Virus record (IMG/VR): IMGVR_UViG_3300038856_000064
Coordinates: 1-64,000 of that record
Length of the DNA: 64,000 bases
DNA from: a virus
Direction: 5' to 3' (one strand)
Positions 1,956-11,782 of the stretch are shown in pieces. The translations under genes were made by a program, and so were the position numbers. Below the pieces are notes generated by a model. It saw nothing but the letters and a program-made list of their open reading frames with translations, had not been told where the DNA came from and searched no databases. Within the stretch, counting starts at the first letter, position 1, and the number at the start of each line of letters is the position of its first letter.

Positions 1956-2028
1956 GGGCGTATAGCATCAAGGACGATGCAGTCGGGCTTCAACCCGAAA
2001 GAGGTGGGTTCGATTCCTACTATGCCCG
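1956..2028 (+). tRNA. atypical tRNA with 6-nt loop CTTCAA (TCA or TTC)
   Basis: GGGCGTA/TATGCCC-G, GCATC/GATGC, TCGGG/CCCGA, GTGGG-TTCGATT-CCTAC. Confidence 0.75.
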
Positions 2029-2498: not shown

Positions 2499-2930
2499 AT
2501 GGACGAACGTACTTATCTCAAGGTAAAGATCAAAAGTTTGGCTGAAGAAGCTAGGATAATTCGCAAGGAAACAAAGCGTGCGAAATCTAAGACTATCAAG
2601 GAAGGATTATACTTACATCGTATCGGAACGGTTCGTATAGAGGCTCGGCACACTCATTTAGCTTATGGCTTTCTGCGTGGTAGGGAGTACCACCAGATCG
2701 AAACCAGTGCTCATAGCGCGCCAGATTGGAAGAAGGTGCGCAAGATGATTGAAAAGTATGGAGCGCATCTAGCAAATTGGCATTTAGACGAGTCTTATAC
2801 AAGCTATAAGGAACGTTGCGATCAGTATAAGGTCGATAAAGAAGAAGTCCTAAAGCGTTTTGATGAATGGATCAAGGCTGCATCTTATTATTATGAGACT
2901 ACTAACACGCAAACAGAGACTACGATTTAA
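2499..2930 (+). CDS. basic hypothetical phage protein
   Basis: Strong GGAGG SD, 143 aa. Confidence 0.8.
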   Translation: MDERTYLKVKIKSLAEEARIIRKETKRAKSKTIKEGLYLHRIGTVRIEARHTHLAYGFLRGREYHQIETSAHSAPDWKKVRKMIEKYGAHLANWHLDESYTSYKERCDQYKVDKEEVLKRFDEWIKAASYYYETTNTQTETTI

Positions 2931-3417
2931 AGAGCATAGCGCTGAAATTCTACCAATTAATCTAGCTGCCATTAATTTTAGGTGTGATGGCAACTTGGGG
3001 CAATTAATCAGAGCGGCGGTTTGTTTCGGTGTAGAGAATCTCTACGTAGTCGGGCATATTCCTACTAGACAAGAGCTAAAAAATATGTCTGGCTCAACAT
3101 TAGATTACATCAATATCATTCAGTGCGAGAATGAAGAAGACCTACTAGATAAGATTAGGGACACGACAGTTCTAGTTGCTGAATTAACTGATGACGCACA
3201 GAATGTTTACGACTTTGAGTTTGATTATTCCAAGCCAACAACTATTATTGTAGGTAATGAATCAGTTGGAGTGCCAGGAGTAATTACAACTAGAGCAGAT
3301 AATGTAGTGTATATTCCCATGCCGGGCTATGGTGTTTGCCTCAATACCGCCCACACGGCTAACATTATGCTGTATGAGGCGGCAAGACAATATTCTCGCA
3401 GTTGCCAGTCTGCATAG
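2893..3417 (+). CDS. SpoU/TrmH-family SPOUT RNA methyltransferase (start uncertain)
   Basis: GNLGQLIRAA, VGNESVG, YIPMPG..CLN motifs. Confidence 0.9.
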   Translation: MRLLTRKQRLRFKEHSAEILPINLAAINFRCDGNLGQLIRAAVCFGVENLYVVGHIPTRQELKNMSGSTLDYINIIQCENEEDLLDKIRDTTVLVAELTDDAQNVYDFEFDYSKPTTIIVGNESVGVPGVITTRADNVVYIPMPGYGVCLNTAHTANIMLYEAARQYSRSCQSA

Positions 3418-3493: not shown

Positions 3494-3542
3494 AGGATCT
3501 TCGGTTATCAAAACTGGCTATTTTATATTCTAGGAGGAAAAA

Positions 3543-4221
3543 ATGACTTCAGTAATAGTAGAGATTAGAGCCGCCGAAGGTGGCAAGGACGCTAAGCTTT
3601 TAGTTCAAGATCAACTAGGGATTTATCGCAAGGTTGCGCAGCGCTACTGTCTTTAGCATCGACGTCATAGAGGATCGGGCGGGGTTCGCTTGTTTCAGGG
3701 TGTCCGGTAAGGGTGCCGAGAGGACGTTCGCCAACGAGGGTGGAGGGCACCGAGTGCAGCGCGTGAGCCCTACAGAGAGGCGTGGAAGGGTCCATACGTC
3801 AACGATTACAGTGGCGGTGCTCCCTGAACCTAAACGACATGAGTTTAATCTAGATGTCCGAGATCTGGAAATTACAACTAGAAGAGGTAGCGGTCCCGGC
3901 GGACAGCATAGGAATAAAACAGACTCGTGCGTTGACATTAAACATAAACCAACCGGGATCGTAGTTTCTATAGATGGACGCTCACAGCATGCGAATAAGG
4001 CGTTAGCCTTGGAGATTCTTTCTGCAAAATTGCTTGCAAAACAGCGTGAGCGTGGTATAGTTGAGCGTAACCAGAACCGAAAAACCCAAGTAGGTTGTGG
4101 TCAGCGTGGTGACAAGCGACGCACTATTAGAATTCAGGATAATCAAGTGGTGGACCATATTCTTGGTAAGACCACAACCTATAAGGAGTATGTCAAAGGA
4201 AACTTCGATAAATTAATCTGA
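3543..4221 (+). CDS. Class I peptide chain release factor, RF1-like, lacking domain 1; needs +1 frameshift at CTT-TAG-C (3651-3657); about 225 aa
   Basis: SD AGGAGG, ATG 3543, EIRAAEGG..A (RF domain 2 start) for 37 codons then TAG; +1 frame carries HRVQRVSPTE..GRVHTS, GPGGQHRNKT and RRTI. Confidence 0.9.
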
Positions 4222-4868
4222 TGTGGCCTTTTAAAAAGAAGCAAGTCCCCTGGTTTCCGGCTATCGGAGATTTTGAGATAGATGAATCGGAGGACTATCT
4301 CGACCCGCATCATAAATCAATAATCAATCAACTCAAAAGTATAGTTCCCCCGGATACCTTTAGGGATGGATATATATGTGGGGGTTTCGCGTCTGCCGCT
4401 ATTGGTATTACCAATTCATACAGTGATATTGATATTTTCATAACGAATAAGGCCACATATAGACGTGTTGCTAATATACTAAGAGGTCTCCCTGGAATAG
4501 CCTTTCTAAAGGAAATCAAAAATGACAGAACCAAAATTAGACGCAACACACTCTCTATAGACGTAATAGATTATAGCGATAAGATTGATCCCTGGCGTTT
4601 GTTATGCAAACCAATACAGATACTAGAAAACTTTGACCTTAATTGGTCTATGGCTTGTATAGATGTCGGAAAACACAAAATCATTTACAATATAGACGCC
4701 TCGTCACCTATGGCTATGGTGAACGAAAATCATGATACAAATTTTTCTCACCAAATAGCAAATAGAATTACCAAGTATCAAGAAAGGTTATGTGCTGAGC
4801 CAGCGAGGGCTTGGAATAATCAACTCATTAAAGCGTTAGTCGAACAAAAGCCTAAGCCGATTTACTAA
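4221..4868 (+). CDS. Pol-beta superfamily nucleotidyltransferase (paralog 1)
   Basis: ICGGF..DIDIF, FDLNWS, RITKY. Confidence 0.75.
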   Translation: MWPFKKKQVPWFPAIGDFEIDESEDYLDPHHKSIINQLKSIVPPDTFRDGYICGGFASAAIGITNSYSDIDIFITNKATYRRVANILRGLPGIAFLKEIKNDRTKIRRNTLSIDVIDYSDKIDPWRLLCKPIQILENFDLNWSMACIDVGKHKIIYNIDASSPMAMVNENHDTNFSHQIANRITKYQERLCAEPARAWNNQLIKALVEQKPKPIY

Positions 4869-4898: not shown

Positions 4899-5602
4899 GG
4901 CCATTTAAAGAAAAACCCACCTGTTGGTGGCCAGACTCTGGAGATTTTATCGTAGATGATCTAGGTGATTATATCGATCTACATCAAGAAACAGTAATTC
5001 ACCAGATCAAAAGTATCATGCCTCTACATTTTTTTAATCAGGCATTTATATGTGGGGGATTTGCAGCTAATGTGGTTGGTATTACAAATTCATATGATGA
5101 TGTTGATATTTTTGTAACAGACAGGACAGAGTTTATGCTTACTGTAGATTATTTACAAAGACATCATGATATATGTGTAATGTATCACACTAATTCTAAA
5201 GATGATTATGGAGAAAGATTTAAATTTATATACAAAACCTCAGTCATAGATCTCGTAGACTATAGTAAAGTGATTGATAAACGTCGTCAAGCAGAAATCC
5301 GTTTAGGAAAATTTGATTCAGTATATATTAAGATACTAAAAACTTTTGATATTAACTGGTCTATGGCTTGTATCGATGTAGGTGCCAATGTGGAACAGTG
5401 GCACAAGGTAATCTATCATGAAGACGCCCTATCTCCCACAGTTGCGATGAACGAAGGGCGTCGAATAACTAACAACTACCACATAGCAGAAAGAATTAAT
5501 AAGTATCAATCAAGACTTAGTTTTGCTCCAAACCTTAAATGGAATGATGCGATAGCTAAAAAGCTTATGAGTGACGAGAAAGGATCTCCGTCAATTTACT
5601 AA
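4895..5602 (+). CDS. Pol-beta superfamily nucleotidyltransferase (paralog 2)
   Basis: ICGGF..DVDIF, FDINWS, RINKY; same MWPFK start as paralog 1. Confidence 0.75.
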   Translation: MWPFKEKPTCWWPDSGDFIVDDLGDYIDLHQETVIHQIKSIMPLHFFNQAFICGGFAANVVGITNSYDDVDIFVTDRTEFMLTVDYLQRHHDICVMYHTNSKDDYGERFKFIYKTSVIDLVDYSKVIDKRRQAEIRLGKFDSVYIKILKTFDINWSMACIDVGANVEQWHKVIYHEDALSPTVAMNEGRRITNNYHIAERINKYQSRLSFAPNLKWNDAIAKKLMSDEKGSPSIY

Positions 5603-5603
5603 A

Positions 5604-6749
5604 ATGCAACTAGATAGCGAATTATTTAATGTAGTTGAGAAGGATGGCATGAGGTTGATTCTCCCATGTCATTCTAATGCCGTCTCTAATACGGGGTGGA
5701 CTAGGAAAAATCTATGGCTAAGATCTAGGGTCGAGTGCGCCAAAACTGGAGATACAATCTCTGAGAGCTTTGGAAAATTCTTTAACCTCGGCCAGGGTCC
5801 TGATGAGCTACAGATCAATATAGAAACAGTTCTAGATGCAATTAGAAATAACAGGAGAATTGTCGCAACCCTTAAGTATGATGGAAGCTGCCTGATTAGG
5901 TCGGTTTATAAGGGGGAGGTATTTCTTCGCACTCGTGGGTCATTGAAGTATACGTTTCACGACGATGCGGAAGATGAGATGAGGATCTTTACTGATAAGT
6001 ATCCACGTCTATTTGATCCTACCTGGGAGCCGGCTAAATCTCTGTTGTTTGAGTGGGTTACGCCAGCAGCACAAATTGTTATTTCCTATTCCGAGCCTGA
6101 CCTAGTCCTTCTAGGTGCAGTGGATCACGGTCATCGTCATTACTCTCATTTGAAATATTTGACAATGGAGCAACTAGAGCCAATTGCCGCCGAGTGTGGC
6201 GTAAGGCTAACGGAATACTTCACGATTGATTCAGTTAAGGATTGGTATGATTTTTATCATGAGGTTTTAGACCATAAAGAGATTGAGGGATACGTCCTTC
6301 GGCTTAACGACGAGCAGGATCTGGTTAAGGTTAAGAGCCAGCCATACATTACCAAGCATGGTGTGAAGAGTAATCTTTCGTTTAAGTCGATGGTGGAATT
6401 TTGGTTGCAACATGGTCAAGAGGCTATTTATACTTCGATTTTAGAACAACTAGAAAAGTTATATGACGAAGAAGTTGTCATGTGGGCATTGCCCTTTGTA
6501 GACAATCTCTTTGTCGCAGTCGAAGCGTGGGAGAAGGCTCGCACTAAAGTTGAGCTAGATGTCTCTACTCGTTCTCACTGGTCTCGTAAAGACTTTGCTA
6601 TCGAAATGAAAAAGAAGTATACCGGCGAAGAAGCAATTCTGTTTAGTGTCGCTATGCAACTTTGGCAAGGTAAGCCTATCGCAGACAAGATGATTCGTAG
6701 CTTTATGGAGCGGTTTGATAATGGTATTAAGGGAATGTTCAATGAATAA
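5604..6749 (+). CDS. RNA ligase, T4 Rnl1-like
   Basis: KFFN, KYDGS (motif I), FEW, EGYVL, KVKS; likely ATG at 5604. Confidence 0.85.
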   Translation: MQLDSELFNVVEKDGMRLILPCHSNAVSNTGWTRKNLWLRSRVECAKTGDTISESFGKFFNLGQGPDELQINIETVLDAIRNNRRIVATLKYDGSCLIRSVYKGEVFLRTRGSLKYTFHDDAEDEMRIFTDKYPRLFDPTWEPAKSLLFEWVTPAAQIVISYSEPDLVLLGAVDHGHRHYSHLKYLTMEQLEPIAAECGVRLTEYFTIDSVKDWYDFYHEVLDHKEIEGYVLRLNDEQDLVKVKSQPYITKHGVKSNLSFKSMVEFWLQHGQEAIYTSILEQLEKLYDEEVVMWALPFVDNLFVAVEAWEKARTKVELDVSTRSHWSRKDFAIEMKKKYTGEEAILFSVAMQLWQGKPIADKMIRSFMERFDNGIKGMFNE

Positions 6750-7818: not shown

Positions 7819-8099
7819 TGAATAATTTTAAACACGATTGTATAGAGGCTGTATTGGAGGGTGACTCAATAGTTATACGTATCTCAAGCAAGTATTTGAC
7901 TAATATCGCGATGCCTGCGTCGTTCGAAGGTATTACTGGCTACGAAGATGCTGTAATTATCGACAAGAAACAATTAATCAAAGATGTTCTAGTTGAACTT
8001 AACCGCGAGGCTGAAGATGGAACGACTATGATTCATCTTATGCTAGATGAAGCTATCACAGACGCATATGACAATGGGTCGGAGGCATTTGAGGGATGA
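7818..8099 (+). CDS. hypothetical protein
   Basis: TAATG-coupled ORF. Confidence 0.7.
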   Translation: MNNFKHDCIEAVLEGDSIVIRISSKYLTNIAMPASFEGITGYEDAVIIDKKQLIKDVLVELNREAEDGTTMIHLMLDEAITDAYDNGSEAFEG

Positions 8100-8659
8100 A
8101 TATCTGGGTGACGTCTGACTCGCACTTTTCCCATCGTAACATTTTACAATATTGCAATCGCCCCTGGTCATCCGTCGAGGAAATGAATCAGGGATTGATT
8201 GATAGATGGAACGAAAGAGTTGGCAAGAATGATGTCGTATATCATCTAGGTGATTTTTGCCTTACTACTAAAATAGACCTAATTGATGAATGGTTATCTC
8301 AGCTAAATGGTACGATTCGGCTAGTAAAAGGTAATCACGACGTCTGGATAAAAAAGCTAGATAGGTTAGAATACGGACACAAGATTGAATGGATCAGAGA
8401 TTACTCTAAACAAACCGTAATGATTGATGATCAAAAACATCAAGTGGTTATGTTTCATTTTCCAATAATGTTCTGGGAGAATAGTCATCATGGGAGTGTT
8501 CATCTGCATGGACATTGTCATGGAAATGCTCAAAATCATAATAAGAATCTACGTCGATTTGATGTTGGCGTAGATTGTAATGACTGGTATCCGGTATTGC
8601 TAGATGACGTCGTCAGACAACTAGTAAATAAAGACACTAATCCGCACCATAACGACTAG
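8096..8659 (+). CDS. calcineurin-like metallophosphoesterase
   Basis: SDSH, HLGD, GNHD, HGHCH, DVGVD. Confidence 0.92.
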   Translation: MNIWVTSDSHFSHRNILQYCNRPWSSVEEMNQGLIDRWNERVGKNDVVYHLGDFCLTTKIDLIDEWLSQLNGTIRLVKGNHDVWIKKLDRLEYGHKIEWIRDYSKQTVMIDDQKHQVVMFHFPIMFWENSHHGSVHLHGHCHGNAQNHNKNLRRFDVGVDCNDWYPVLLDDVVRQLVNKDTNPHHND

Positions 8660-11693: not shown

Positions 11694-11782
11694 GGGGTAG
11701 CGCTTGGGCGTGACGCGACGGCGTTGTGATGGTTCGAATCCATCGTGGGATATCCAGGTTCGATTCCTGGTCTACCCCTCCA
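11694..11782 (+). ncRNA. tRNA-like RNA with two T-arms, ends in encoded CCA
   Basis: GGGGTAG/CTACCCC-T-CCA; GATGG-TTCGAAT-CCATC; CCAGG-TTCGATT-CCTGG. Confidence 0.75.

Follow-up and report, generated by a model that had tools for sequence, protein, structure and literature searches.

The bacterial gene prfB carries a +1 frameshift at CTT TGA C by which release factor RF2 is autoregulated. When the stop codon of this site is slowly decoded, the tRNA-Leu sitting on CUU re-pairs on UUU and reading continues in the +1 frame, which happens less often the more active the stop-reading factor is. The tripeptide that recognizes the stop codon is PxT in RF1 and SPF in RF2, and RF2 has a valine at the position occupied by Q181 in RF1. 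All the +1 entries at a CUU-stop site in RECODE are prfB (PMC10885494). Among 8,164 bacterial prfB frameshift motifs there is none with TAG, and no programmed shift was found in prfA, the gene of bacterial RF1 (Prince et al. 2025, PMC12421855); nor is a frameshift reported for prfH in PMC1586002. Phages are known to code for RF1 or RF2 in huge and in recoded genomes, in reports that leave frameshifting and forms lacking domain 1 unmentioned (PMC7162821; bioRxiv 10.1101/2021.08.26.457843; PMC13037316), and the study of the recoded Lak, Jade, and Agate phages does not mention a frameshift (bioRxiv 10.1101/2021.08.26.457843). Our literature search, for which most subscription journals were outside the coverage, found no description of a family of gated phage release factors like the one presented here.

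The stretch of DNA analyzed (hereafter, the window) covers positions 1 to 64,000 of an IMG/VR virus record of 175,148 bp. Gene callers give only truncated open reading frames (ORFs) for its release factor gene, as they do for gated genes among its database relatives. Read directly, the locus contains every element listed in an earlier note made from the letters of the window: a Shine-Dalgarno (SD) sequence, an ATG, 37 codons of release factor domain 2, the heptamer CTT TAG C, and a +1 frame that leads to the GGQ motif (Table 1). The zero-frame codons include VEIRAAEGG and end in Tyr-Cys-Leu (YCL). Beyond the TAG, the zero frame shows no homology and reaches a TAA 17 codons on, while the +1 frame, in which one T is skipped and AGC ATC GAC follows, is open as far as the TGA at 4219-4221. 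The two parts were joined by reading TAGC as a four-letter step that yields serine (CUU as Leu, U skipped, AGC as Ser), giving a chain of 225 amino acids. Recoding or suppression of TAG was also considered and rejected, given where and how the zero frame ends, the standard code of the phage (long-ORF stops in about 190 ORFs: TAA, 78; TGA, 64; TAG, 49), and the absence of any suppressor tRNA from the phage record.

Table 1. Features of the release factor (RF) locus and its surroundings, in window coordinates.
Feature	Position	Strand	Remarks
SpoU-type RNA methyltransferase	2860-3417	+	Upstream of the RF gene
tRNA-like gene, 69 nt, anticodon AAA	3425-3493	+	ARAGORN; 50 nt before the RF start
Shine-Dalgarno AGGAGG	3532-3537	+	5 nt before ATG 3543; direct reading
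Zero-frame segment, 37 codons (Met1-Leu37)	3543-3653	+	Encodes the initial strand and helix of RF domain 2
GG-K-D element (within the zero-frame segment)	3579-3590	+	Aligns with G116-E119 of Thermus RF1; U1-reading element
Shift site CTT TAG C	3651-3657	+	Slippery Leu codon (CTT, 3651-3653), in-frame amber stop (TAG, 3654-3656), C after the stop (3657)
+1-frame segment Ser38-Ile225 and stop TGA (4219-4221)	3655-4221	+	Remaining domain 2/4 and GGQ domain 3
Recognition loop Ser75-Pro76-Thr77 (AGC CCT ACA)	3766-3774	+	In the place of PxT in RF1
GGQ, Gly119-Gly120-Gln121	3898-3906	+	Peptidyl-tRNA hydrolysis motif
ORF with Gad2/poly(A)-polymerase-head-like nucleotidyltransferase fold	4221-4868	+	Start codon overlapping the RF stop (TGATG); lies outside the switch
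T4 Rnl1-like RNA ligase	5571-6749	+	Downstream of the RF gene
Calcineurin-like phosphoesterase	8096-8659	+	Downstream of the RF gene

In Pfam, the 37 zero-frame residues match positions 101 to 132 of PCRF, and the +1 part matches positions 153 to 194 of the same domain followed by the RF-1 (GGQ) domain. Joining the two raises the score against the NCBIfam RF1 model from 186 to 212 bits, in one stretch that covers residues 3 to 225 and profile positions 105 to 335, while the RF2 and PrfH models give 125 and 85 bits, respectively. The 212 bits do not reach the RF1 equivalog cut-off of 400 (NF001859/TIGR00019) because domain 1, of about 105 residues, is missing: the match begins at profile position 105, and none of the ORFs upstream encodes this domain. 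Residues 4 to 225 also align without a break over the junction with the RF1 of Thermotoga (E value, 5e-46) and Thermus, with an identity to bacterial RF1 of about 40%. The proposal of the earlier note, an RF1-like factor without domain 1 whose completion depends on +1 shifting at CTT TAG C, is supported. Folding of the single sequence was poor (pLDDT 56), and a model based on an alignment of 63 relatives was used in its place. It has a mean pLDDT of 89, which is about 97 around the junction at residues 37/38, and superimposes on ribosome-bound RF1 with a TM-score of 0.92 (1.8 Å), versus about 0.86 for RF2 and 0.68 for PrfH.

In the alignment with Thermus RF1, the equivalents of G116, Q181, T186, H193, T194, and GGQ 228-230 are retained, and E119 is replaced by an aspartate. 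The recognition loop falls on P184-V185-T186, with the threonine kept and P184 replaced by serine, so the loop indeed reads SPT where RF1 has PxT. The assignment to RF1 rather than RF2 follows from this loop, which is SPT and not SPF, from the glutamine at the position of Q181, and from the higher score of the RF1 model. Going by its residues, the joined product should read UAA and UAG. The P184S replacement may change this range; serine at the first position of the tripeptide reportedly relaxes the reading of the second base, an observation that Ito and coworkers are said to have made in 2000. According to PMC1586002, codon recognition and peptide release can proceed without domain 1, which mediates RF3-dependent recycling; therefore, a factor without it can plausibly work, and independently of RF3. 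The phage protein is probably a minimal RF1-type class I release factor made of domains 2, 3, and 4 only, which would be expressed by programmed +1 frameshifting like that of prfB.

Relatives of the gene, 45 to 65% identical, were recovered in two scans of IMG/VR, the second of which provided 539 stretches, of which the best 80 were kept. An alignment of homologs, as the earlier note had suggested, places a CTT-stop site at the identical codon in 75 of 81 loci (the window plus the best 80 of 539), all of which require a +1 shift there: 60 at CTT TGA, 13 at CTT TAG (window included), and 2 at CTT TAA. Three loci have a continuous gene, and another three have an in-frame stop in place of the shift. 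The tetranucleotide CTTT is invariant (100%) in 70 distinct sequences of the family, despite the existence of six Leu codons, and the consensus upstream of it in the same sequences is CGGAGGGGT, an SD-like run that, like the element of prfB, ends 3 nt before CTT. The gate stop is followed by C in 67% of cases and by T in 3%, versus about 25% for each base at the ends of flanking ORFs (chi-square, 50; P = 7e-11). In the phage's own genome, none of 189 ORF ends has CTT as its last codon, and only 3 of the 49 ending in TAG continue with C. The gate thus sits in exactly the context, that of a weak stop, that real gene ends avoid.

The earlier note had treated a frameshifted RF1 gene as an anomaly. 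RF1 genes are indeed not normally frameshifted, prfA having no known shift and none of the 8,164 prfB motifs being TAG (PMC12421855), and the anomaly is real; however, it is not a one-off: the window copy represents a less common, amber-gated type within a large phage family, whose members usually have CTT TGA C preceded by an SD. The zero-frame segment is under purifying selection when compared with L036, the sister of the window copy (dN, 0.23; dS, 0.98), and in more distant pairs, in which synonymous sites are saturated, 21 to 24 of 33 residues are identical. Two other subfamilies, of shorter relatives, have CTT TGA C elsewhere in the gene, after residue 22 in L018, L020, and L025 (near position 2888 of the loci) and after residue 45 in L019 (near position 2999), which points to repeated acquisition of the device. 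A megablast search of the release factor region against GenBank phages gave no match, and tblastn found a single member, LR745208.1, a public uncultured phage of 485 kb in which the gene is unannotated and reads GGAGGGGT CTT TGA C at the position of the family. We also inferred the gates of the 120 nearest proteins in a large database (up to 82% identity) from their +1-frame residues, obtaining 18 TGA, 10 TAG, and 2 TAA. About 45% of these 120 relatives are continuous, ungated genes; hence, the gate is dispensable and would be a regulatory addition and not a requirement.

Two small groups of relatives deserve separate mention. In loci L089, L093, L102, L212, L222, L230, and L239, the frameshift is replaced by an in-frame stop (TGA or TAG) at the site or close to it; such genes would be gated by read-through or belong to a recoded genome, and four of them have SPT. 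Loci L095 and L108 are 86% identical, yet their gates differ (TGA and TAG, respectively), and their recognition loops have diverged sharply (RVPPTEHKGR and HVSPTDKNKR). In contrast to the loops, the 33 zero-frame codons that precede the gate differ in this pair by three synonymous substitutions and by no replacement.

When six bacterial RF1 sequences are used to root the tree, all members of the phage family fall into one clade (support, 100). The TAG state requires 11 changes for 12 rows on this tree, of which at least 6 are forced by well-supported branches; the gate has changed repeatedly. L036, located in a contig of 176 kb and 65% identical to the window copy, has the gate CTT TGA A. The choice of gate does not appear to follow stop codon usage, a possibility that found no support in the flanking ORFs (25% end in TAG around TAG-gated members and 26% around TGA-gated ones), and TAG usage in the window's phage shows no clustering by region or strand.

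The window copy also lacks the internal SD used by prfB, where it stimulates shifting, as stated in the earlier note for the absence of this element: it reads gcgcagcgctactgt before CTT, with no SD-like run. This element is present in about 80% of the relatives, and about a fifth, L036 included, do without it. A search for a downstream RNA structure in its place found none (z = 0.31). With neither the internal SD nor a structure to replace it, the efficiency of the shift may be low.

The SPT loop is found in 4 of the 81 IMG/VR loci (window plus the best 80 of 539) and is commoner among the closest database relatives. Loops beginning with serine were associated with gates other than UGA in the IMG/VR set (Fisher's exact test, P = 0.007), but the association was not significant in phylogenetically independent pairs. 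Two scans with DNA patterns, most of whose matches were not release factors, retrieved further SPT members, and these were UGA-gated, so coevolution of loop and gate was rejected. The 120 nearest database proteins led to the same rejection, with SPT in three genes with a TGA gate, two with TAG, one with TAA, and three without any gate. Taken as a sign that specificity had been matched to the gate, SPT does not hold up, since it occurs with all these states and the other codon-reading residues of RF1 are kept.

The likeness to prfB lies in the combination of CUU, an in-frame stop, and C; in the +1 shift to UUU; and in the class I release factor gene that carries it, to which most phage relatives, but not the window copy, add a GGAGG-type element 3 nt upstream. 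In contrast to prfB, the phage factor is RF1-like and not RF2, its site lies at codons 37/38 within domain 2 instead of near codon 26 in domain 1, and the stop in the window is UAG, not UGA, while in the UGA-gated majority of the phages the gate codon is one that the product should not read. Bacterial RF1 (prfA) is the best match in sequence and fold and shares the PCRF and RF-1 domains, GGQ, and the Q181, T186, H193, and T194 equivalents, but it differs from the phage factor, which lacks domain 1, has SPT for PxT, is frameshifted, and is encoded by a phage. PrfH (RFH), which is paired with RtcB2, is similar in having about 200 to 225 residues, no domain 1, and a conserved GGQ; however, the phage factor has decoding residues of the RF1 type in place of the PrfH loop and no RtcB partner. 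Lak, Jade, and Agate phages also code for a class I release factor among translation genes, but theirs are full-length RF1 or RF2 in recoded genomes with suppressor tRNAs, whereas the phage of the window uses the standard code.

The phage record contains 16 tRNA genes, all of them between 1.3 and 19 kb, and the release factor gene is inside this tRNA island. It is located among tRNA genes in 17 of 25 relatives examined and, once, beside a tmRNA gene. The methyltransferase, RNA ligase, and phosphoesterase genes around it look like an RNA repair and modification module. A conserved module of release factor and RNA ligase was rejected, as the Rnl1 neighbor is shared only by L036. The ORF that follows the release factor gene has no Pfam match at an E value of 0.001; its atlas look-alikes are viral clusters of Gad2 and poly(A)-polymerase heads (feature score, 0.97; structural TM-score, 0.66), and a weak homolog comes after the release factor gene in L036. 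Because its ATG overlaps the stop of the release factor gene, this ORF may need ribosomes that reach it in the +1 frame in order to be translated.

Several RNA genes of the region are unusual. The tRNA-like gene just upstream of the release factor gene shows, by eye, a perfect acceptor stem of 7 bp, a TTCGAGT T-loop, and a C at position 33, with an unusual folding energy (z = -3.0), and its anticodon AAA would pair with UUU, the codon slipped onto at the gate. In L036, the 1.5 kb on either side of the release factor gene gave no tRNA call. ARAGORN also reported tRNAs that it assigned to no known type, with an "anticodon" of two bases (tc), at 1956-2028 (+ strand) and, likewise, at 1825-1901 and 11694-11782. 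A candidate permuted tmRNA (ARAGORN), which may be a false call, lies outside the window at 144848-145276 of the same record, and in L078 a phage tmRNA gene (2066-2417) is located directly downstream of a TAG-gated member, in a dense tRNA cluster.

Three other explanations of the locus have to be weighed. The one that survives best, although we consider it unlikely, accepts the frameshift but assigns another task to the product, either a changed or broadened range of codons conferred by SPT or the rescue of ribosomes in the manner of PrfH or ArfB, with an amber gate that switches on when host RF1 fails. Like PrfH, the phage factor lacks domain 1, but its PrfH score of 85 bits compares with a cut-off of 167 (166.65), and its fold is closer to that of RF1 than to that of PrfH by the TM-scores given above. 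Serine does replace the first residue of PxT, for which the effect attributed to Ito and coworkers could be invoked, but the remaining RF1 decoding residues are all retained, and SPT accompanies every type of gate as well as ungated genes. As for the RNA-repair genes nearby (the ligase and the phosphoesterase), the ligase neighborhood is common only to the closest relative, L036, and there is no RtcB in the 175-kb record. No positive evidence thus emerged for the rescue role entertained in the earlier note, with the PrfH model below its cut-off and RtcB missing from the record.

It is very improbable that no frameshift takes place and that the 37-codon ORF is translated separately from a C-terminal protein initiated at an internal +1 codon, for example, TTG 3634. 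Such truncated ORFs are the only ones that gene callers predict, but the candidate internal starts have no SD upstream, and the 37 residues, which are under purifying selection, supply domain 2 with its initial strand, its long helix, and the GG-x-D element that reads U1. The joined chain, moreover, folds as a single domain with high confidence over the junction, continuous homologs encode both parts in one chain, and the invariant CTTT beside the stop would have no reason to exist. A pseudogene or a single-base assembly error, the first thing to suspect when a metagenome assembly shows a one-base frame break, is scarcely credible on the sequence evidence and can be set aside, since the break falls exactly on the CTT-stop-C site of the family in 75 of 81 independent assemblies, both parts of the gene are intact and under selection, and the public genome LR745208.1 has the same design.

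The reading that we prefer, and regard as likely, is that of a prfB-like +1-gated sensor of termination efficiency set on UAG. Ribosomes would start at ATG 3543, translate the 37 codons, and pause, with the P site occupied by peptidyl-tRNA-Leu on CUU and the A site by UAG-C. A quick UAG-reading factor would then release a 37-residue peptide. If UAG were decoded slowly, the tRNA would re-pair from CUU to UUU, AGC would be read next, and the 225-residue factor would be completed. The proposal of the earlier note that poor UAG termination is a precondition for the full-length factor follows from the prfB paradigm and is plausible. Since the factor should, as judged from its residues, recognize both UAA and UAG, an RF1-type product would exert negative feedback at this site on the total UAG-termination capacity, that of host RF1 plus that of the phage factor. 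Host RF1 and the gene's own product would both act as repressors, in what would amount to the autoregulation of RF2 moved to the amber codon. Self-feedback cannot be the general logic of the family, because most relatives are UGA-gated and UGA is a codon that an RF1-type factor should not read; in this majority, the same logic would become the cross-sensing of RF2.

CUU-stop +1 shifting is a textbook example of recoding, tied in the sources consulted to bacterial prfB and UGA (PMC10885494, PMC12421855). The phage case presents the same device in the other factor, at another position of the protein, in viruses, and at the amber codon. As far as can be judged from sequence, this is a real and conserved recoding site, the prfB device placed in an RF1-like phage gene with an amber gate, to which we infer a regulatory meaning. 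For the family as a whole, we see the balance as even for a wider picture, in which a widespread family of minimal RF1-type factors in large phages would be gated by stop codons, mostly by CUU-UGA-C sensing host RF2, and would have been switched repeatedly to UAG, UAA, or an in-frame stop; the amber form would then be the first case in nature of an RF1-type factor under an equivalent of RF2 autoregulation, holding UAG-termination capacity steady during infection. The analysis also reveals that gene callers systematically truncate gated release factor genes. Confirmation of the shift would mean that the device was put together anew in another setting; the family would then serve as a natural experiment on whether a match between gate codon and product specificity is required, with amber self-sensing on one side and UGA cross-sensing on the other. 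Phages would then appear to manage termination capacity, and not tRNA supply alone.
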